A stretch of DNA of 64,000 nucleotides from an uncultured Actinomycetes bacterium (GCA_963819735.1 CAWFXC010000005.1:556460-620459); one strand, 5' to 3'; positions 1,961 through 59,379 are shown, counted from the stretch's first letter. Notes: a model not told the origin generated them from the letters alone. Translations and numbers: made by a program.

Positions 1961-3047
1961 GTGTCGGTCAGTGAACGCGACCTGTCGGAATCGGGCCCGA
2001 CCGCCGGGCGCGTCTCCGCACTGCGAGCGGCGTTCCCGTGGACGGGGGTGGTCGCGCCATGGCTGCTGTCCCGCGTGATCTCGATCGTGGTGCTCATGGT
2101 GGCGGTCAACGACCCGACCCGCGGCTCGCGCTTCGATCAGGTCGCGACGCTGCTGGGACGGTGCCTTCTACCTCGACATCGCGCGGAACGGCTACGGGCC
2201 GGTGGCGGTGCCGTTCCCGAAGTGGCCGTTCTTCCCCGGGCTCCCGGCCGTCATCCGGTTGCTGAGCGAGTTCGCCGACGACAAGACCGCCATCTTCGTG
2301 CTGAACCAACTGGTGTTCCTGGTGGCGTTGGCCGGCCTCTACCGCCTGGCTCGCCGCCACGGCACGCCGCGGGTCGCGTCACTCGCGGTGTGGTCGCTGG
2401 CGCTGTTCCCGGCATCGTTCGTGTTCTCGATGACGTACCCGTCGGCCATCTTCCTGGCCGCGTCGGTGTGGGGCTTCGTGCTGGTGGAGGACCACCTCGA
2501 CCTCGCCGCCGGCATCCTCGCCGCCGGCGCGGCGATGGTGCGGCCCAACGGGTTGGTCGTCGCGCTGGCGTTGATCGTGGCGGTGCGGTCGTGGCGGCGG
2601 GCACTGCTGGTCGCGGGGCCGGTGGTGATCGCGGTGGCCGCCTGGTGCTGGTACTGCGCCGACCGCACCGGGGACGCCTTCGTGTTCCTCACCACCAAGG
2701 CCCGCTGGCAGGAGATCACGCTCGTCGGGCTGTTCCAGGGCCACGTGAAGTGGTCGGTGCTGCCGCACCTGGTCCTCGCGTTCGCGGCGCTGGCCGTGCT
2801 CGTCGTGCAGCGGAAGCGGCTGCCGGTGGCGTGGCTGGTGTTCGCAGTGATCTACCTCATCCCGTCGTTGCAGCTGGGCATGGTGGGGGTGGGCCGCTAC
2901 GCCAACGAGTGCTTCCCACCCTTCGTGGCCGCGGGCCAGATCCTCGACCGATGGCCCCGGCGGGCCTACGTGGCCGCGCTGGGGTTGTCGACGGTCGGGC
3001 TCGTCCTGTTCGCGTTCGTCGCCGGCCGCTACGAACTGGTGCCCTAG
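1961..3047 (+). pseudogene. polytopic membrane protein, probable GT-C-type glycosyltransferase (mannosyltransferase-like); frame disrupted near 2150-2165
   Basis: The N-terminal part (VSVSERDL...VLMVAVNDPTRGSRFDQVATLL) is in frame 2. It continues in frame 0 as WDGAFYLDIARNGYGPVAVPFPKWPFFPGLP... to the stop at 3047. The two frames join cleanly with a 1-nt shift, and the product is multi-TM throughout. Confidence 0.45.
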
Positions 3048-13594: not shown

Positions 13595-15835
13595 CTAGAC
13601 CCCGCTCGACACCGGCTCGCGTACCGGCTCCACCTCGGGCGTCGGCTTCGGGCCGTCGCCCTCGATGTCGATGCGGGGCAGGAAGTCGAGCCACTTCGGG
13701 AACCACCAGTTGGCGTCGCCGAGGATCTCCATGATCGACGGCACGAGCATCATGCGCACGATGGTCGCGTCGACGAGCACCGCGAACGCGAGCCCGAGGC
13801 CGAACATCTTCACTTCGGGCGAGTAGTTGGCCACGAACGCGCCGAACACGAAGATCATGATCAGCGCGGCCGACGTGATGACGCGCGCGGTGCGCGAGAG
13901 CCCGCGCACGACGGCGAGCCGGGTGTTCCCGGTGTTGTCGTACTCCTCGCGGATGCGGGTGAGTAGGAACACCTGGTAGTCCATCGAGAGTCCGAAGAGG
14001 ACGGCGAACATCATCATCGGGATGAACGCCACGATGGGCACCGTGCCCTGCAGCCCGATCAGGCCCTTCATCCACCCCCACTGGAACACCGCGACGGTGG
14101 CGCCGTAGGCGGCCGCGACCGACAGCAGGTTCATGGCGGCCGCGGTGAGCGGGACGAGCACGGAGTGGAACACCAGCATCAGCAGGATGAACGACAGGAA
14201 GACGACCGCGGCGATGAAGTACGGCAGGCGGTCGCTGATCCGGTTGCCGATGTCGATGAACGTCGCGGTCTGACCGCCGACGTACGCCGTGGCCCCGCTC
14301 GTGCCGACCGCCGCCGGGATCACGTCGTTGCGCAACGTGCCGACGAGGTCTGCGGTCTGGGCGCTGTCGGGGGAGGACGACGGCAGGACGCCGATCTCGG
14401 CCACCGTCTTGTCCGGGCTGAGCCGGGGCGGCAGCACCGACTGCACGCCCGCGGTCTTGGAGATGGCTGACGTGATGTCGGCGAGCACGGCGTCGTCGCC
14501 GGCCGACGGCAGCGCGACCACGACGAGCAGTGGCCCGTTCGTGCCCGGCCCGAAGCCGTCGGCGATGAGGTCGTAGGCCTGTCGTTGCGTCGCCGACTTC
14601 GGGAGGTTGCCGTCGTCGGACTGCCCCAGCCGCATCGACAGCACCGGGAGGGCGAGCACGATCAGGATGGTGATGCCGAGGATCGCAAACGGCCACGCGT
14701 GCTTCGCCACCAGCGTGGCCCAACGCTCCCAGACGCTGGCGCGGGGGGAGATGGCGTCGTCGCCGCCCGCGGCGGCGGCCGCGGCCTGGGCCCGATCCGG
14801 ATGGTGGATGAGGCTCGGTACCTTCCAGCGGTCGATGCCCTTGCCCACGAGCCCGATGACCGCGGGAAGCAGGGTGAGCGCGGCCAGCATCATCACCGCC
14901 ACGACGACCGCGGCCATGTAGCCCAGCTTGGCGACGTAGGGGATGCCGGCGATGGCGAGGCCGCAGATCGCGATGACCACCGTTGTGCCGGCGAAGAGCA
15001 CTGCCGATCCGGCCGTCGCCACGGAACGACCCGTGGCGGCTTCGGTGTCCATGCCCGCGGCGCGGTTCTCGCGGTAGCGGGTGACGATGAACAACGAGTA
15101 GTCGATGCCCACGCCGAGACCGATCATCGTGGCGAGGGTCGGCGCAAGGGTGCCGATCTCGGTGACTGCAGCGAAGATGTTGATGATCGCGATGCCGACG
15201 CCGAGGCCGAGCAGCGCGGTGAGGATCGGCAGCCCCATCGCGACCACCGAGCCGAACGCGAACAGCAGGATGATGACCGCGGCGAGGAGACCGATGAGAT
15301 CGGCGTTGCCCTCGGGCGGACGATCGGCGTAGTCGACGACCTCGCCGCCGTAGGCCACCTTGGCGCCGGCCTGACGCGCCGACGCGGTCGCATCCTGGAG
15401 TTGAGCGAACGTGTTGCTCGGGAGCTTCTGCGCCTGGGTGTCGTACTGCACGGTGACGAGCGCGATCTTGCCGTCCTTCGAGATCAGCGCGTTGCCGAAC
15501 GGCCCGAATGGATCGCTGACGCTGGTGACGTGCGGGATCTTCTCGAGCGCGGCGACGCTGGCGGTGATCCCCGCGGCGACAGCCGGACTCTTGATGCCAT
15601 CAGCGGCCTGGAACACGACGGTGGCGCTGTCGCCCGACGCGGTCGGGAACTGCTGCTCGAGGAGGTCGAGCGCCTGCTGCGACTGTGCGCCCGGGATGCG
15701 GAAGTTGTCGGTGGTCTTGCCGTCGAGGCCGATCGCGAGCGCGACGACCACGAACACCGCCACCACCCACGCACCGATGAACCACCAGTGGTGGCGCGCC
15801 GCGCGTCTCCCCAGTCGGTCGAGCAGTCCGGACAC
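13595..15835 (-). CDS. MMPL family transporter
   Basis: Two 6-TM bundles each follow a large extracytoplasmic loop, giving typical RND/MMPL topology. The GTG at 15835 gives VSGLLDRLGRRAARHHWWFIGAWVV, preceded by AAGGGG. The longer ORF would run antisense through the thioesterase gene. Confidence 0.85.
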   Translation of the reverse strand: MSGLLDRLGRRAARHHWWFIGAWVVAVFVVVALAIGLDGKTTDNFRIPGAQSQQALDLLEQQFPTASGDSATVVFQAADGIKSPAVAAGITASVAALEKIPHVTSVSDPFGPFGNALISKDGKIALVTVQYDTQAQKLPSNTFAQLQDATASARQAGAKVAYGGEVVDYADRPPEGNADLIGLLAAVIILLFAFGSVVAMGLPILTALLGLGVGIAIINIFAAVTEIGTLAPTLATMIGLGVGIDYSLFIVTRYRENRAAGMDTEAATGRSVATAGSAVLFAGTTVVIAICGLAIAGIPYVAKLGYMAAVVVAVMMLAALTLLPAVIGLVGKGIDRWKVPSLIHHPDRAQAAAAAAGGDDAISPRASVWERWATLVAKHAWPFAILGITILIVLALPVLSMRLGQSDDGNLPKSATQRQAYDLIADGFGPGTNGPLLVVVALPSAGDDAVLADITSAISKTAGVQSVLPPRLSPDKTVAEIGVLPSSSPDSAQTADLVGTLRNDVIPAAVGTSGATAYVGGQTATFIDIGNRISDRLPYFIAAVVFLSFILLMLVFHSVLVPLTAAAMNLLSVAAAYGATVAVFQWGWMKGLIGLQGTVPIVAFIPMMMFAVLFGLSMDYQVFLLTRIREEYDNTGNTRLAVVRGLSRTARVITSAALIMIFVFGAFVANYSPEVKMFGLGLAFAVLVDATIVRMMLVPSIMEILGDANWWFPKWLDFLPRIDIEGDGPKPTPEVEPVREPVSSGV

Positions 15836-15967
15836 GGTCGCCCCTTGGTAGATAGCCGGTGTGCAAAGCCGGCGTTGCCAGCCGAATTGTCCCCGTCTAT
15901 GTCCTTCGACCGCCGGAGAGGGGGGCTTGACCGCTCTCTCGGCCCTCGCCAGGCCGATTCCGGGCCG

Positions 15968-16864
15968 ATGACGCCGGTGAGGATACGCCTGCGCGACCAT
16001 GGCCCGGGGGACACGTCGGAGGAGGAGCGGGGAGTGCCGGTCGAGTACGTCGCTGCACCCATACACGGGCGCGTCTACCGCACCAGCCGGCGGGTGTACC
16101 TCGGCGACGTGGATCGTGGCGCCCACCTCCGGCTGGAGGCGCTGGCCCGTTTCCTCCAGGACACCGCGACCGACGACGTCGACGACGTCGGGATCCCCGA
16201 CCGCGGTGGGGTGTGGGTGGTGCGCCGGGTCAACCTCGAGATCACCGCGCGGCCTCGCTATCTCGATCGCGTCGGGCTCGAGACGTTCTGCAGCGGTATC
16301 GGCCCACGGTGGGCCGAGCGCCGCACCACGATGCTCGGTGCCGACGGGCCCCTGGTGGAGGCGGCCGCCATCTGGGTGTTCATCGACGGTGCGGGCGGGC
16401 GGCCGCTCCCACTCGACGACGACTTCGAGCAGTTCTACGCCGAAGCGGCGGGCGGTCGCCGGGTCAGCGGCCGCCTGGAGCATCCGCGCCCCGCCGAGGG
16501 AGTCGCGACGCGGCCGTGGCCGGTGCGGGAGAGCGACTTCGACATCCTCGACCACATCAACAACGCGCGCTATCTGGAAGCGATCGAGGACGAGCTGGCG
16601 CGACGGCTCCCGAACCGGTCGGTGGTGCGCGCGAGCATCGAGTACCGGGGGGCGGTCGAGCGCCGCGACACCGTCGAGCTCGCGGCCGAGGTGGTCGGGC
16701 CGGTGGGTGACGGCGCCGGTGACGGTGGGGACGGTGAGCGGCAGCTGACTGTGTGGCTCCTGGCCGGCGGCGAGGTCCGGATGTCGGCGGTGGTCACGAC
16801 GGTCCCGAGTCCGCGGCCCATGCAGCGGCGGGGGTCACCGACCGAACGGGCACCGGTCGCGTAG
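15968..16864 (+). CDS. acyl-ACP thioesterase family protein (hot-dog fold)
   Basis: The 298-aa product from ATG 15968 has two hot-dog halves (YRTSRRVYLGDVD... and WPVRESDFDILDHINNARY). It is divergent from the MMPL gene. The exact start is uncertain. Confidence 0.6.
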   Translation: MTPVRIRLRDHGPGDTSEEERGVPVEYVAAPIHGRVYRTSRRVYLGDVDRGAHLRLEALARFLQDTATDDVDDVGIPDRGGVWVVRRVNLEITARPRYLDRVGLETFCSGIGPRWAERRTTMLGADGPLVEAAAIWVFIDGAGGRPLPLDDDFEQFYAEAAGGRRVSGRLEHPRPAEGVATRPWPVRESDFDILDHINNARYLEAIEDELARRLPNRSVVRASIEYRGAVERRDTVELAAEVVGPVGDGAGDGGDGERQLTVWLLAGGEVRMSAVVTTVPSPRPMQRRGSPTERAPVA

Positions 16865-16865
16865 G

Positions 16866-17924
16866 CTGATCAGCGCTCTGGACCCCTTCTTCCGCGATGC
16901 CCTCGCCGGGCGCCGGTGCCTCGTCACCGGAGGACTCGGATTCATCGGATCGAACCTGGCGCTGGCCCTTGCCGACCTCGGCGCGCAGGTGACGGTCCTC
17001 GACTCGCGCGTGGAGCGCCACGGCGCGAATCCGTGCAACCTGGTTCCCGGCCTGGGTGCGGCCCCGTCGCCGGGTGCGGCGGGCGTGGGTGCGGGTGCGG
17101 GCATCACGGTGATCGAGGCCGATCTCGGTGACGTCGGGCGCGACGACCTCCGCCGCGCCGCGATCGAGGCCGAGATGATCTTCAACCTCGCGGGGCAGGT
17201 GAGCCACGTCGACTCGATGGACGATCCGCTCTTCGACCTGGGGGTGAACACCACGAGCCAGTTCGCGTTCCTCGAGCTCCTGCGCAAGGAGAACGCCGAC
17301 GCGCGCGTCGTCTACACGTCGACCCGTCAGATCTTCGGCAAGCCGCGGTACCTCCCGGTCGACGAAGAGCACCCGGTCGCGCCGGTCGACGTCAACGGGA
17401 TCACGAAGTACGCGACCGAACAGCTCCACCTCCTGTATCACGACGTGTACGGCCTGCGGTCGTCCGCGGTCCGCCTCACGAACGTGTTCGGCCCGCGTCA
17501 GCGTGTGCGCGACGACCTACAGGGCTTCCTGCCGATCTTCGTGCGCCTCGCACTCGCCGACGACGTGATCGCGGTGTTCGGCGACGGCGCGCAGCAGCGC
17601 GACTGTCTCTACGTCGACGACGTCGTCGAGTGTCTGTTGCTCGCCGCGATCACCGACGACGCCGCGGGGGAGATCTTCAACGTCGGCAACGACGAGCGGC
17701 TCTCGCTCAGCGAGATTGCCGACGCGGTCGTGCTCGCCGCCGGCACCGGTCGGGTGGAGCACGTGCCGTGGCCCCCGGATCGCGACGCGATCGACATCGG
17801 CTCGTACTTCGGTGACTCGTCGAAGGCGAAGCGCATGCTCTCGTGGGAGCCGCGCACGTCGTTCGCCGAAGGCATCGAGCGCACGATCGCGTTCTACCGC
17901 GCGCGTTCGCAGTGGTATTTGTGA
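16866..17924 (+). CDS. NAD-dependent epimerase/dehydratase family protein; start codon unresolved
   Basis: The Rossmann motif LVTGGLGFIGSNL lies in frame at 16920-16960, upstream of the first canonical start (GTG 16989). In-frame CTG is at 16866 and ATC at 16869. There are no ATG, GTG or TTG codons between the in-frame stop at 16746 and 16989. Confidence 0.7.
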   Translation: MISALDPFFRDALAGRRCLVTGGLGFIGSNLALALADLGAQVTVLDSRVERHGANPCNLVPGLGAAPSPGAAGVGAGAGITVIEADLGDVGRDDLRRAAIEAEMIFNLAGQVSHVDSMDDPLFDLGVNTTSQFAFLELLRKENADARVVYTSTRQIFGKPRYLPVDEEHPVAPVDVNGITKYATEQLHLLYHDVYGLRSSAVRLTNVFGPRQRVRDDLQGFLPIFVRLALADDVIAVFGDGAQQRDCLYVDDVVECLLLAAITDDAAGEIFNVGNDERLSLSEIADAVVLAAGTGRVEHVPWPPDRDAIDIGSYFGDSSKAKRMLSWEPRTSFAEGIERTIAFYRARSQWYL

Positions 17925-18964
17925 CGGAAGCCGAGTCGCGCATCCCGGTCGTCGATCTGGCCCGCCGCGCGGCATCACTCGAGCCGGAGCTCTCGGAAGC
18001 GGTGGCGCGGGTGGCTCGTTCCGGCACCTATCTGTTCGGCCCCGAGCTCGACGCGTTCGAGGCCGAGTTCGCCGAGTTCACCGGCCGCCGCTACGCGGTA
18101 GGTGTCGCGTCGGGCACCGATGCGCTCCGCCTCTCACTGCTCGCGCTCGGGGTGGGCCCGGGCGACGAGGTCATCGTGCCCGCGTTCACCGCGGTGCCCA
18201 CTGCGGCGGCCGTGTGCGCGACCGGGGCGACGCCGGTGTTCGTCGACGTCGATCCCGACACCGCGGCCATCGACCACGCGGCCGCGGCCGACGCGGTGAG
18301 CAAACGCACGCGCGCGGTGATCCCGGTACACCTCTACGGTCGTCCGACCGCGTTGCCCGAGCTCGGCGTTCCCGTCGTCGAAGATGCCGCGCAGGCGCAC
18401 GGTGCGCTCGACCCGCGGTCGGGGTCGGCGGCCGCGGCCTACAGCTTCTATCCCACGAAGAACCTGGGCGGAGTCGGCGACGGCGGCGCGGTCGTGACCG
18501 ACGACGCCGAGCTCGCGGCGACGGTGCGGTTGTTGCGCGCGCACGGCGTCACCGAGGGCTACGTGCACACCCGCATCGCGACGAACGCGCGGCTGTCGGA
18601 CATCGCGGCGGCCGCGTTGCGTGTCGGCCTCCGCGGGCTCGAAGCCGGGAACCGGCGCCGACGTGAGATCGCGAGCTGCTACCGCGCCGCCGCGCCTCAC
18701 CTCCGGTGGCAGGCGGCGCACGAACGGCACGTGTACCACTTGTGCGTGGCCCGGGTCACCGACCGCGAGACCTTTCGGGATCGGGTTCCCTTCGGAACGG
18801 GCGTGCACTATCCGCTCGCGTTGACGCAACAGCCCGCCTACCTGCACTTCGTCCGCGCCGCGTGCCCGGTGGCGGAGTCGTGGGCCGCGGAGTGCGTATC
18901 GTTCCCGTGCTTCCCCGAGTTGACCGACGACGAGATCGAGGCGGTGTGTCGAGCGATCCCGTGA
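17921..18964 (+). CDS. DegT/DnrJ/EryC1/StrS family aminotransferase (sugar aminotransferase, ArnB-like)
   Basis: PLP-dependent sugar aminotransferase motifs (SGTDAL, DEVIVPAFT, YPTKNLG with the Lys in this region). Its GTG overlaps the epimerase stop as GTGA at 17921-17924. Confidence 0.9.
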   Translation: MTEAESRIPVVDLARRAASLEPELSEAVARVARSGTYLFGPELDAFEAEFAEFTGRRYAVGVASGTDALRLSLLALGVGPGDEVIVPAFTAVPTAAAVCATGATPVFVDVDPDTAAIDHAAAADAVSKRTRAVIPVHLYGRPTALPELGVPVVEDAAQAHGALDPRSGSAAAAYSFYPTKNLGGVGDGGAVVTDDAELAATVRLLRAHGVTEGYVHTRIATNARLSDIAAAALRVGLRGLEAGNRRRREIASCYRAAAPHLRWQAAHERHVYHLCVARVTDRETFRDRVPFGTGVHYPLALTQQPAYLHFVRAACPVAESWAAECVSFPCFPELTDDEIEAVCRAIP

Positions 18965-19899
18965 ACCCGGCCGTCCACGCCATCTCCGCGTTCTTCCCCT
19001 GCTTCAACGACGAAGCGACGATCGAGCGGATGGTGGATGTGGCCTTCGCGACGCTCGAACGCGTCGGGGTCGACGACTGCGAAGTGATCGTGGTCAACGA
19101 CGGGTCGACCGACGGTTCGGCGAAGGTGCTCGACGCGATCGGCGAACGCGAGCCGCGGCTGCGCGTGGTCACCCACGAGCACAACCGCGGGTACGGCGGG
19201 GCTCTGCTGTCCGGGTTCGAGGCGGCGAAGAAGCAGTGGGTCTTCTACACCGACGGCGACGGCCAGTTCGATCCGGCGGAGCTGGAGCAACTCGTGCAGC
19301 ACGCGTCGGATGCGGTCGACGTGGTGCAGGGCTACAAGATCCGGCGGGCCGACGGTCCGCTCCGCTCGGTGATCGGCCGGGTGTACCACCGGTTCGTGTC
19401 GTTCTTCTTCGGCCTGCACATCCGCGACACCGACTGCGACTTCCGCCTCATCCGGCGGGCCAAGCTCGACGAGGTCGAGCTGGTGTACACGACCGGTGTG
19501 ATCTGCGTCGAGCTCGTGCGCAAGCTGCAGGACGCGGGCGCCCGGTTCACCGAGGTGGGGGTGCACCACTACCGACGGGTGTTCGGCAAGTCGGAGTTCT
19601 TCCGGCTGGGTGCCATCGTGCGCACGTTGTGGGACCTCGCCGGGCTGTGGGTCCAGCTCGTGGTGCTCCGCCGTGGTCGCGACTCGGGATCGGTCAGGGT
19701 CGCGTTCGCGACGATGAGCACGGAGGTCCCGAACGGCACGTCGGCGCGCGCCAACACGCGGCGTTCGACGCCGGCGAGGGGCGCGAACACCCGATCGAGC
19801 TCGCGTTTGTCGACGTCGGAGCCCGTGGGCGTGTCGGCCCGGTTCCGGAGCCGTTCGATACCCGCCAGTGCGGCCGCGGGTGGGGCGAGGAACGAATAG
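18961..19899 (+). CDS. family 2 glycosyltransferase, polyprenyl-phosphate sugar transferase type (ArnC/DPM1/GtrB-like); 3' end uncertain
   Basis: GT-A motifs VVNDGSTDGS, DGDGQ and DxD, with a C-terminal amphipathic/TM segment (FFRLGAIVRTLWDLAGLWVQLVVL). Its GTG overlaps the aminotransferase stop as GTGA. The reading frame stays open about 60 codons past the recognisable domain, antisense to the methyltransferase gene. Confidence 0.8.
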   Translation: MNPAVHAISAFFPCFNDEATIERMVDVAFATLERVGVDDCEVIVVNDGSTDGSAKVLDAIGEREPRLRVVTHEHNRGYGGALLSGFEAAKKQWVFYTDGDGQFDPAELEQLVQHASDAVDVVQGYKIRRADGPLRSVIGRVYHRFVSFFFGLHIRDTDCDFRLIRRAKLDEVELVYTTGVICVELVRKLQDAGARFTEVGVHHYRRVFGKSEFFRLGAIVRTLWDLAGLWVQLVVLRRGRDSGSVRVAFATMSTEVPNGTSARANTRRSTPARGANTRSSSRLSTSEPVGVSARFRSRSIPASAAAGGARNE

Positions 19900-20423
19900 G
19901 CGTACGTCGACCGCTGCACCGTGAGGCCGGCACGCTCGGCGAGGGCGGACAGCGTGGCCCGTCGGTAGCGGCGGCGACCGTGGACGGTGGTGTCGTGGGC
20001 GCGTCGCAGTGATTCGAACGCCGGTTCGACGAGCACGACCGCACCTCCGGGCCGGACGACGCGGGCCAACTCGGCCATCGCGCGCGCGTCGTCGTCGACC
20101 GCGTACAGCAGCGTGATGCCGAGCGCGATGTCGAACCGGCCGTCGGCGAACGGCAGCGCTTCGACTCCGGCGCGTGCGGGAATGGTGTCGGGGCGGCGGG
20201 CACGGACGTAGGCGAGCGCGTCGGGCGAGAGGTCGACTCCCACCACGGTGCCGTGCGCGGCCAACCAGGCGCCGTTCCCGCCCGGTCCACACCCGGCGTC
20301 GAGGATCAACTCCGCGGTCGGGAGCCAGGGCGCGAGCACGTCGGCGACGAGCGCGCGCGTGTTGCGGTACCACCAGTGGTCGTCTTCGACCGCGGCGATC
20401 CGGGCGTACTCCTCGACCTCCAC
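19569..20423 (-). CDS. class I SAM-dependent methyltransferase
   Basis: The SAM-binding motif DAGCGPGGN and following motifs are present. The recognisable domain ends near 19700. The frame stays open to 19569, antisense to GT2. Confidence 0.75.
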   Translation of the reverse strand: MEVEEYARIAAVEDDHWWYRNTRALVADVLAPWLPTAELILDAGCGPGGNGAWLAAHGTVVGVDLSPDALAYVRARRPDTIPARAGVEALPFADGRFDIALGITLLYAVDDDARAMAELARVVRPGGAVVLVEPAFESLRRAHDTTVHGRRRYRRATLSALAERAGLTVQRSTYAYSFLAPPAAALAGIERLRNRADTPTGSDVDKRELDRVFAPLAGVERRVLARADVPFGTSVLIVANATLTDPESRPRRSTTSWTHSPARSHNVRTMAPSRKNSDLPNTRR

Positions 20424-20439: not shown

Positions 20440-23454
<3,015 letters not shown>

Positions 23455-57753: not shown

Positions 57754-59379
57754 TTGATTTGGGGCGCGATTGTGCGGGGAATGGCCGCCTCGGCGCCCGT
57801 ACTCGCCGTCCACCCGCCGCGCCGCTCGGCGCCGCACATTCCATGGCGCACGTTCATCGTCATCGCGCTCGCGGCCAGCGGCGTCGCCGTCGTGTGGCGG
57901 GTCGGTTGGCGAGGCTCTGACGTCCCGGCTCAGCTGTATCGGCTCGAGATATTCCGGACGTCCGGCTTCGCGATTTGGGACAACCACTGGTACGCGGGCC
58001 ACTACCTCTTGTCCTATTCGGCGCTGTTTCCGCCACTCGGCGCAACGATCGGCATGTACGGCACGGCCGCGCTCGCGGCAGTGACGGCCGCCTGGGCGGT
58101 GGAGCGTCTGCTCGGCGATGTGCTCGGAACCCGATCGCTCCTCGCGGCTGGAGCGTTCGCACTCGCGCTCATGGTGCCGGTTGCGATCGGTCAGCTTCCG
58201 TTCTTGTGCGGCGAAGCAGCGGGTCTCGTCGCGCTCGTGTCGCTCCGCCGCCACCACCGGCTGCTCGCGCTGATCTTCGCAGCGTGTTGCCCTTTATTCA
58301 GCCCGGTCAGCGGTGTCTTCCTCCTCATCGCCATCGCGGCAATCGCGATTGCCGAGTGCGGCGCGACCCGTTGGTTTGCCGTACAGGTCGGGGCGATGGT
58401 GGCGCTTCCCCTGGTCATCGCGATGGTGGCGTTTCCGGATCCCGGCACCTTCCCGTTCCCCGTTGGCGATCTCATCACGACGCTTGGGGTTGTCGCCGCG
58501 CTCTGGTGGATCGCCCCCCATGAGTGGCGGGCGTTGCGCGTCGGGATCTTCCTCTACGGGCTGCTCGCGATCGCCGACTTCACCATGCCGAACGCACTGG
58601 GAGGTAACTACCAGCGTCTCGCGTTGGCGATGAGCCCGGCCCTCGCTCTCGCGTTCGCGACACTGCCACGACGGCGCTGGGTCGTGCTCCTCGCGCTACC
58701 GCTGCTCGTTTGGCAATGGAGCCCCGCCCTCCCCGCGATCTCAGCCACCGCGAGCGCACCGACCAGCCAAGCGTCCTACTACCAGCCGCTCGTCGCCTAC
58801 CTCGAGGCGCAACCCACGGTGGGCCGCGTCGAGATCCCCTTCACCCAAGCTCACTGGGAAACGGCCTACGTCGCCCCGAAGGTACCGCTCGCTCGCGGAT
58901 GGGAGCGCCAACTCGACGTGGCCGACAACCCCATCTTCTACGCGGCGACACCACTCACCGCGACCTCATACGAACGGTGGCTCGTCGACCAGGGCGTGAG
59001 TTGGGTCGCGCTCCCTGACGCCCCGCTCGACTATTCGTCGCGTGCCGAAGGCACACTGCTACGCACCGGGACGATCTCCGACCTTCATGAGGTCTGGCAC
59101 AACGCCCACTGGACCGTCTGGCAAGTCAGAAACTCACCGGGGATCGTGTCGCCGCCGACGCGCCTCGTCTCACTCGGAACCTCGAAGTTCGTGATCGTCG
59201 CGCCGGCTGCCGGGCGAATCACCATTCGGATCCATTACACCAGCGCATGGAACATCACATCCGGCGACGCATGCGTCGAAGGCACCAACGCTGGCTGGAC
59301 AGGACTGATCGTGAACAAGCCGGGACGCATCGCGGTCAGCGCCGCGCTCTTGAGCGCATCCACCTGCCCGTCACCGTGA
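57754..59379 (+). CDS. large integral membrane protein (about 10 TM) with C-terminal extracytoplasmic domain; glycosyltransferase-like topology
   Basis: The 541-aa product has multiple TMs in the first 330 aa, followed by a soluble beta-rich C-terminal domain. No named family was recognised. Confidence 0.65.
   Translation: MIWGAIVRGMAASAPVLAVHPPRRSAPHIPWRTFIVIALAASGVAVVWRVGWRGSDVPAQLYRLEIFRTSGFAIWDNHWYAGHYLLSYSALFPPLGATIGMYGTAALAAVTAAWAVERLLGDVLGTRSLLAAGAFALALMVPVAIGQLPFLCGEAAGLVALVSLRRHHRLLALIFAACCPLFSPVSGVFLLIAIAAIAIAECGATRWFAVQVGAMVALPLVIAMVAFPDPGTFPFPVGDLITTLGVVAALWWIAPHEWRALRVGIFLYGLLAIADFTMPNALGGNYQRLALAMSPALALAFATLPRRRWVVLLALPLLVWQWSPALPAISATASAPTSQASYYQPLVAYLEAQPTVGRVEIPFTQAHWETAYVAPKVPLARGWERQLDVADNPIFYAATPLTATSYERWLVDQGVSWVALPDAPLDYSSRAEGTLLRTGTISDLHEVWHNAHWTVWQVRNSPGIVSPPTRLVSLGTSKFVIVAPAAGRITIRIHYTSAWNITSGDACVEGTNAGWTGLIVNKPGRIAVSAALLSASTCPSP

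Follow-up and report, generated by a model that had tools for sequence, protein, structure and literature searches.

The stretch of DNA analysed here (the window, 64,000 nucleotides, GCA_963819735.1 CAWFXC010000005.1:556460-620459) comes from an uncultured Actinomycetes bacterium; it has about 70% G+C, and its nearest kin are metagenome-assembled genomes (MAGs) of Acidimicrobiia. Between positions 16866 and 19899 lies a cassette of three co-oriented genes, encoding a short-chain dehydrogenase/reductase (SDR), a DegT-type aminotransferase and a family 2 glycosyltransferase (GT2), which an earlier note on this DNA had likened to the Arn pathway for 4-amino-4-deoxy-L-arabinose (Ara4N) modification of lipid A. 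We find that these genes are probably the cytoplasmic half of a widespread, uncharacterised system, whose members in the window, together with one insertion, are the following:

16866-17924, + strand: SDR (Pfam Epimerase, 5.7e-41)
17921-18964, + strand: DegT aminotransferase (Pfam DegT_DnrJ_EryC1, 1.9e-89)
18961-19899, + strand: GT2 (Pfam Glycos_transf_2, 1.8e-29)
19569-20423, - strand: class I S-adenosylmethionine (SAM) methyltransferase, convergent with the GT2 gene (Pfam Methyltransf_11, 2.1e-19)
19705-19706: one-nucleotide insertion, TT against a single T in the related locus L085 (DNA alignment)
1961-3047, + strand: compact GT-C-fold transferase, frameshifted (tblastn with the membrane domain of protein P0125)

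The three chained + strand open reading frames (ORFs) described in the earlier note are real: their Pfam matches are strong, the GTGA stop/start overlaps can be read directly at 17921-17924 (SDR/DegT) and 18961-18964 (DegT/GT2), and gene calls in the syntenic relative L001 show identical 4-nt overlaps. The proposed borders hold in part, 19899 being a true stop, but 16866 is a CTG and the last ~60 GT2 codons are an unconserved tail made by an indel. Nor does the cassette consist of three genes, as a thioesterase gene upstream and the convergent methyltransferase gene had been overlooked.

The cassette belongs to a module that recurs far outside this lineage. We fetched 80 loci, all from MAGs, which span Acidimicrobiia, Chloroflexota, Acidobacteriota, Deltaproteobacteria, Binatia, the candidate phyla radiation (CPR) and Ignavibacteriota. 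Among the 53 well-flanked loci (at least 3 kb on both sides), the SDR is present in 45, DegT in 43 and both in 40; the methyltransferase gene adjoins GT2 in 32 and is a conserved member of the module, and all three partners of GT2 are found together in 26. The SDR/DegT/GT2/methyltransferase quartet recurs in two gene orders, usually next to a polytopic or GT-C gene, with other polytopic or YfhO-like genes where the GT-C of the window type is absent. A GT2 search over 1.84 billion representative proteins returned 618 protein clusters (50% identity) at E < 1e-30, many of them long. GTDB species representatives contain at least 598 matches. The 21 long relatives examined (35-64% identity) include fusions of GT2 to a PMT_2-type GT-C (five proteins), to YfhO, also a GT-C (three), to DegT (two; in P0151 the DegT domain shares 45% identity with the window's DegT), to the methyltransferase in either order (six: P0131, P0143, P0170, P0181, P0192 and P0256) and to an RmlB-type dehydratase (one). 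In P0200 (568 aa) GT2 is fused to LPG_synthase_TM, the flippase-like domain of MprF, and this fusion may hint at the type of flippase used by some family members.

Sequence and fold both relate the GT2 to glycosyltransferases (GTs) acting on polyprenyl phosphate. Its top PDB sequence match is ArnC (67 bits, residues 5-227), followed by GtrB. The AlphaFold2 (AF2) model (pLDDT 91) has a GT-A fold, a helix at 133-150 and a single long C-terminal helix at 216-242; the first 21 Foldseek matches are all ArnC, GtrB or PfDPMS (E 1e-17 to 8e-12; TM-score 0.57-0.77, mostly 0.70-0.77), and GpgS and polymerising GT2s rank below the polyprenyl-phosphate GTs. D98, D100, Q102, R129 and R135 are invariant across 19 diverse family members, and the D-x-D-x-Q sequence corresponds to DADLQN, DADLQD and DADLQH of ArnC, GtrB and DPMS, a motif described for polyprenyl-phosphate GTs (10.1101/2025.01.29.634835). 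The likeness to ArnC seen by the earlier note is therefore that of the best sequence and fold match, but it does not extend to membership: the GT2 scores 76.2 bits on the ArnC equivalog model NF007986 (cut-off 529; residues 4-226 on positions 4-222 of 316), and its model has no transmembrane (TM) hairpin, a hydropathy scan revealing one weak segment at 218-236. It also falls short of PgfS, the top NCBIfam match (79 bits, cut-off 500), and of the PpgS model NF058614 (41.1 bits, cut-off 370). The GT2 thus represents a separate clade, without TM helices, within the polyprenyl-phosphate GT class (ArnC/GtrB/DPMS). The GT-C fusions and adjacent GT-C genes suggest that it would transfer its sugar to polyprenyl phosphate.

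The predicted partner of the GT2 on the periplasmic side is the gene at 1961-3047 (~355 aa when intact, PMT_2/PIG-V-like), one of two candidates put forward earlier. Two observations bear this proposal out: (i), the membrane domain of P0125, a fusion protein whose GT2 domain is 64% identical to that of the window, matches window positions 2151-2951 with 48.5% identity (tblastn, E 2e-64) and (ii), homologues of the window GT-C adjoin the cassette in 12 loci (L011, 13-18, 33, 42, 51, 59 and 73). These homologues have 350-360 aa and match PF13231 (PMT_2), PF04188 (PIG-V) or PF09594 (GT87), the window copy scoring 26.0 against a PMT_2 cut-off of 26.1. With the AF2 model of one of them, P0272, the first 33 Foldseek matches are all GT-C enzymes at weak E-values (6e-4 up), ArnT ranking 27th. 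The family shows the polytopic fold of the GT-C superfamily with an acidic residue in the first outer loop, W55-D56-G57 after the first TM segment being invariant. The frameshift noticed earlier is confirmed. The frame open from 1961 gives way to another at about 2151, homologues read QVATRWDGAFY across the lesion, which falls just before the invariant WDG, and the intact syntenic 90% relative L086 lacks one base that the window carries at about 2150-2155. Programmed frameshifting is unlikely, with no slippery or stop-codon context at the lesion and relatives that read straight through it. The second candidate, at 57754-59379 (+ strand), encodes a polytopic protein of 541 aa with at least seven hydrophobic segments, a C-terminal soluble domain of ~200 aa, a GT-C-like architecture and the motif FAIWDNHWYAGHY. 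We rejected it as a demonstrable partner: neither a Pfam match nor a homologue among the 80 related loci turned up, it is unlike all the fused GT-C domains, and no link to the cassette was detectable.

The aminotransferase carries the PLP lysine of sugar aminotransferases (K180 in SFYPTKNLG, invariant) and not the His of ColD and E1 dehydrases. DesV, QdtB and WbpE are C3-aminotransferases, and a profile of 16 module DegTs run against the PDB ranks the entries as follows: 7b0d 516 bits, DesV 464, QdtB 436, 7n63 419, WbpE 403, 5u1z (a putative aminotransferase) 390, ArnB 295 and 284, perosamine synthase 291, DesI 211 and WecE 200. ArnB is the top NCBIfam match of the window protein, but it is not the nearest characterised DegT and its model NF008658 gives 184.5 bits against a cut-off of 631. 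A grouping with dTDP-sugar aminotransferases, which the earlier note had named as evidence against an Arn-like pathway, is thus partly what we find (403-516 bits for the C3 type against 284-295 for ArnB). The enzyme accordingly groups with the DesV/QdtB/WbpE C3 clade, which argues against Ara4N chemistry, and an amino group at C3 appears more likely than one at C4.

The SDR is atypical. Pfam Epimerase and GDP_Man_Dehyd match it along the full model length and it bears the marks of the extended SDR superfamily, TGGLGFIGS and D46 being invariant. In alignment to 4zrm and 2hun, the position of the catalytic Tyr is occupied by Asn (NGITK), and Thr is followed by Arg-Gln, STRQ replacing the TDE/TSE of dehydratases and decarboxylases. 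These are features of the family: of 64 members, 55 have the Asn and 52-55 have STRQ; N177, T153, R154 and the NAD-binding motif are invariant in 16 sequences from across the phyla. The protein is accordingly no ArnA C-terminal domain or UDP-xylose synthase (UXS), having STRQ for STSE and NGITK for Y-x3-K, scoring 30.6 bits against 294 on NF008872 and not reaching the cut-off of the ArnA model (777). Nor is it a nucleoside diphosphate (NDP)-hexose 4,6-dehydratase of the RmlB or GMD kind (TIGR01181, 120.8 against a cut-off of 365). A profile of the family run against the PDB places 4-epimerases, CDP-tyvelose 2-epimerases, Pal and UXS on top, with no clear winner.

The context of the SDR suggests where it acts. 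In the cultured Chloroflexus aurantiacus, the gene for the same Tyr-less SDR (P0449) overlaps the DegT gene with no GT2 nearby; on this contig (L083, 6871-12428) the order is DegT, Tyr-less SDR, canonical UDP-xylose synthase, glucose-1-phosphate cytidylyltransferase, GalE-like SDR and RmlC. Because this pair adjoins nucleotide-sugar enzymes without a GT2, the SDR-DegT pair probably acts at the level of the nucleotide sugar. SDRs resembling UXS and the ArnA decarboxylase adjoin the module in Vicinamibacterales, a CPR genome and Chloroflexus, and, Chloroflexus apart, lie within 10 kb of it in six loci. Since the recurrent neighbours or fusion partners (UXS, ArnA-type and RmlB-type) all make NDP-4-keto sugars or UDP-xylose, the data suggest that the Tyr-less SDR would process an intermediate of this type for the aminotransferase. 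When a second SDR of the UXS/ArnA kind was sought in the window, the sole match was the cassette SDR itself. In three Vicinamibacterales loci (L046, L049 and L065) a second SDR follows the DegT gene directly; it has STSEVYG and YACSK, is 39% identical to UXS and stays under the cut-off of two models, with 171 bits for UDP-4-keto-pentose/UDP-xylose synthase and 181 for LegB. It is a possible supplier of a 4-keto sugar.

The beginning of the SDR gene is also peculiar. The frame opens at 16866 with CTG, one base past the TAG (16862-64) of the upstream gene, and no ATG, GTG or TTG is found 5' of the Rossmann motif GGLGFIGS, the first lying at 16989, within the fold. A canonical start is likewise absent in the relatives L006, L007 and L010, and in L001, L003 and L004 an ATG stands three codons past the conserved CTG (window 16878, the Leu of 'ALD'). 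The candidates in the window are CTG 16866, ATC 16869 and CTG 16878. Given the conserved CTG and the thioesterase stop 1 nt before CTG 16866, this looks like a non-canonical start that is tolerated, or like reinitiation coupled to termination at the upstream stop, and not like an artefact.

At the other end of the cassette, the extra T distorts two genes at once. In L085, whose GT2 is 98% identical to that of the window, GT2 has 256 aa, the methyltransferase 242 aa and the two overlap by 23 bp. The second T at 19705/6 moves both convergent genes past their stops (TGA 19715-17 for GT2, TCA 19694-96 for the methyltransferase), resulting in products of 313 and 284 aa and a 331-bp overlap; both stay open through each other because their third codon positions are on the same genomic phase. 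The more than 100 GT2 homologues are about 240-256 aa long and end just after VVLRRGR; the conserved core stops near 19680 and the ancestral stop would be the TGA at 19715-17. At its 5' end, GT2 has an alternative start at GTG 18946. The methyltransferase core spans 19700-20423 and the family alignment ends at LPFGLSV. The protein combines a generic SAM core with family-specific N- and C-terminal segments, the former with the motif EY..VE..HWWY. Its identification as a sugar N,N-dimethyltransferase was tried and rejected, DesVI and TylM1 matching at only 27-40 bits over the SAM core, below unrelated methyltransferases, with the single sequence as with the profile.

Upstream, the cassette is preceded by two genes in divergent orientation:

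16034-16864, + strand: acyl-ACP thioesterase-family gene (Pfam Acyl-ACP_TE domains, GC phase)
13595-15835, - strand: MMPL-family RND transporter (Pfam MMPL, 2.1e-93)

The third-position GC phase turns to the thioesterase frame at 15920-16760 and the product matches the N and C domains of Acyl-ACP_TE (E 1.5e-16 and 1.8e-08). The likely start is GTG 16034, preceded by GGAGGAGGAG, and the stop is the TAG mentioned above, so that the gene ends at 16864 in the same orientation as the SDR frame. The true frame is that of ORF 14585-16864; ORF 15999-16748 (+) was discarded as Arg/Ser-rich junk. The gene is confined to the closest relatives (L001, 3, 4, 6, 7, 9 and 10): it is a lineage-specific addition, the first gene of the operon in this lineage and outside the conserved module. 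The MMPL gene, with a GTG start at 15835 deduced from the sequence and from relatives, also adjoins the cassette only in the closest relatives. Elsewhere in Acidimicrobiia, the GT-C and methyltransferase genes occupy the position of the thioesterase and MMPL genes upstream of the cassette.

We thus propose, and think it rather likely, that the cassette forms the cytoplasmic half of a conserved module for surface glycosylation, which has five components and loads an amino sugar on polyprenyl phosphate. In this scheme, (i), the Tyr-less SDR and DegT would together turn a nucleotide-activated keto or hydroxy sugar into an amino sugar (ii), the SAM methyltransferase would modify this amino sugar, probably by N-methylation (iii), the monotopic, TM-less GT2 would, on the inner membrane face, move it onto polyprenyl phosphate (iv), a flippase would bring the lipid-linked sugar across and, (v), the compact GT-C (1961-3047) would hand it to an acceptor in the envelope. 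We infer the order in which the enzymes act, the regiochemistry, the part played by the methyltransferase, and both the lipid carrier and the acceptor; the gene order, overlaps, family and fold assignments, co-occurrence and domain fusions are directly observed. The general logic advanced earlier, from nucleotide-sugar modification through transamination and polyprenyl phosphate to a GT-C, is supported by the GT2 matches, the D-x-D-x-Q motif and the fusions of GT2 to GT-C and to DegT.

Several points weigh against this proposal. The SDR is devoid of the catalytic Tyr, and two of the 16 sequences have lost the Lys as well; this enzyme may therefore produce no keto sugar. No cassette protein reaches any curated equivalog model, and the preference for C3 over C4 is a matter of similarity scores alone. 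The GT-C gene lies 14 kb from the cassette and is frameshifted here, and the proposal leaves the thioesterase and MMPL neighbours unexplained. Lastly, an LPG_synthase_TM-like flippase was sought and none was found in the window, L022 giving one weak match, and no flippase, of the GtrA type or another, was found among the cassette neighbours examined or the conserved neighbour clusters of the fetched loci (ORFs of at least 80 aa).

The pathway may be impaired in this particular genome, since the GT-C gene is frameshifted and the SDR gene has no canonical start. In its strong form, with the GT-C a pseudogene, the SDR start lost and the tails of GT2 and the methyltransferase aberrant, the system would be decaying or inactive here, which we regard as possible but doubtful. 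Such decay would fit the 1-nt insertion in the GT-C gene relative to the intact 90% relative, the extra T relative to L085 and the absence of ATG, GTG or TTG before the SDR. However, third-position GC bias is still strong in all coding regions and they remain highly similar in identity to those of relatives, and the three other relatives without a canonical SDR start suggest a tolerated feature (CTG start or coupling). Both indels could also be assembly errors: the related L001, L002 and L086 contain frameshifts. In these ENA ERZ250395xx assemblies many genes are split (the SDR gene of L001, the majority of those in L002 and the citrate synthase gene of L086), so indel errors are common in such data.

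Alternatively, the GT2 could act first, on a common nucleotide sugar, and the SDR, DegT and methyltransferase would then tailor the lipid-linked sugar, in the manner of DprE1/DprE2 and ArnD. The fusions of DegT and of the methyltransferase to GT2 place these enzymes at the membrane by the GT2, and both the remodelled active site of the SDR and the family-specific termini that the methyltransferase has beyond its SAM core would suit a lipid-linked substrate. While this is conceivable, we consider it improbable: the Chloroflexus aurantiacus SDR-DegT pair sits with UXS, cytidylyltransferase and RmlC genes without a GT2, the nearest characterised DegT relatives all use NDP-sugars, and substrate channelling predicts the fusions equally well. 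Less probable still is the synthesis of an amino-sugar glycolipid or small-molecule glycoside, in which the thioesterase would release a fatty-acid-derived acceptor for the GT2 to glycosylate and the MMPL transporter would export the product, with neither polyprenyl carrier nor GT-C. The thioesterase gene, co-oriented and ending 1 nt before the SDR frame, and the divergently adjacent MMPL gene, an arrangement kept in the closest relatives, would be explained in this way. But these two genes are restricted to one Acidimicrobiia subclade, whereas SDR, DegT, GT2 and methyltransferase recur together across phyla, usually with a GT-C; moreover, GT2-GT-C fusions exist and the GT2 folds match polyprenyl-phosphate GTs.

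The comparison with Arn (PmrHFIJKLM; ArnA-F, ArnT), from which the earlier note started, shows that a working principle is shared but membership is not (ArnC 76/529, ArnB 184/631, ArnA-type decarboxylase 31/294). In both systems a nucleotide sugar aminated by a DegT enzyme is loaded, or would be loaded, on polyprenyl phosphate by a D-x-D-x-Q GT2 for use by a GT-C; ArnC is the nearest solved structure to the module GT2, and the sugar receives an extra modification, formylation in Arn and probably methylation in the module. The module differs by an aminotransferase of the C3 clade and by an SDR devoid of the Tyr and of the Ser-Glu/Arg set of ArnA (TRQ/N/K against TSE/Y/K). The genes examined included no formyltransferase, deformylase or ArnE/F-type gene, a methyltransferase being conserved instead, the GT2 has neither TM helices nor a C-terminal hairpin, and the GT-C is a 355-aa PIG-V/PMT_2-like protein and not a GT83 enzyme. 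It is found in Acidimicrobiia and in further phyla that are mostly uncultured. A true Arn orthologue, in which a 4-keto-pentose derived from UDP-glucuronic acid is aminated at C4 to Ara4N, loaded on undecaprenyl phosphate and moved to a phosphorylated envelope lipid to confer resistance to cationic peptides, would account for ArnC as the best GT2 match, for ArnB at the top of the NCBIfam matches of DegT and for the UXS/ArnA-decarboxylase-like SDRs beside the module in three lineages, but it is the least probable of the explanations considered, very unlikely in view of these differences, of Arn equivalog cut-offs all missed 3- to 10-fold, of a DegT profile that scores 100-230 bits better on C3-aminotransferases than on ArnB, of ArnT as only the 27th fold match of the GT-C and of a window without a UXS-like gene. 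The cassette would thus work like the first half of Arn, and like the GtrB/GT-C systems, without being a member of Arn.

The GtrA/GtrB/GtrC, CsbB/YfhO and PgfS (Streptococcus mutans) systems resemble the proposed module in that a GtrB-like GT2 makes a polyprenyl-phosphate monosaccharide for an external GT-C, and the YfhO-GT2 fusions of the module GT2 family recall CsbB/YfhO. However, what these systems transfer is Glc, GlcNAc or Gal taken unmodified from common UDP-sugars, and a GtrA flippase is part of them, whereas the module has a dedicated SDR, DegT and methyltransferase for tailoring, and no GtrA among the neighbours examined. In PpgS (Rv3631)/Rv3779, Francisella FlmF2/FlmK and Bordetella LgmA/B/C, a short GT2 makes a polyprenyl-phosphate amino-sugar donor and a GT-C puts the cationic sugar on an envelope polymer. 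PpgS is, like the module GT2, a TM-less enzyme of about 240 aa, but in these systems the amino sugar comes from deacetylation of an N-acetylhexosamine instead of DegT transamination, with no methyltransferase or SDR. The module aminotransferase is nearest to DesV and QdtB, enzymes of the dTDP-3-amino-3,6-dideoxyhexose pathways (DesV/DesVI, TylB/TylM1, QdtA/QdtB/QdtC), and the DesV and TylB pathways also have a SAM methyltransferase companion (DesVI, TylM1). Here the differences are the absence of a cupin 3,4-ketoisomerase from the module, the weakness of the methyltransferase matches to DesVI and TylM1 (given above) and the destination of the product, which would go to a polyprenyl-phosphate GT2 and not to a macrolide-acting GT1. 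Literature searches turned up nothing relevant on the module, on PDB entry 7B0D or on the DVU_1556 methyltransferase family; the exopolysaccharide clusters of Actinoplanes (PMC13390465) are different clusters.

It is tempting to speculate further that the module adds a sugar not described before, a methylated 3-amino sugar (a pentose or a 6-deoxyhexose depending on the lineage), through a polyprenyl-phosphate carrier to the envelopes of many mostly uncultured phyla, and that the Tyr-less SDR is a new enzyme class feeding a DesV-type aminotransferase. We hold this extended version only tentatively. The SDR could then oxidise the NDP-sugar directly at C3; alternatively, it could be a non-cupin 3,4-ketoisomerase working on NDP-4-keto sugars provided by UXS-, ArnA- or RmlB-type enzymes.

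If the proposed glycosylation module is real, a single conserved gene set places a tailored amino sugar on the cell surface in several phyla, among them Acidimicrobiia, Chloroflexota, Acidobacteriota, Deltaproteobacteria, Binatia and CPR, groups whose envelopes are almost unstudied. Functionally, it would correspond to the aminoarabinose and galactosamine changes by which Gram-negative bacteria and mycobacteria control their resistance to cationic peptides. The SDR subfamily, strictly coupled to a sugar aminotransferase despite the loss of its hallmark catalytic Tyr, raises a concrete question of enzymology, and because the cultured Chloroflexus aurantiacus carries the SDR-DegT pair, this chemistry is directly testable.

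Beyond the methyltransferase gene, the - strand carries at 20440-23454 the gene of a 1004-aa protein whose N-terminal HTH_3/HTH_31 domain is followed by a long stretch free of annotation. L001 has kept this gene at the same position, with a product of 827 aa and a faint match to 3keto-disac_hyd.

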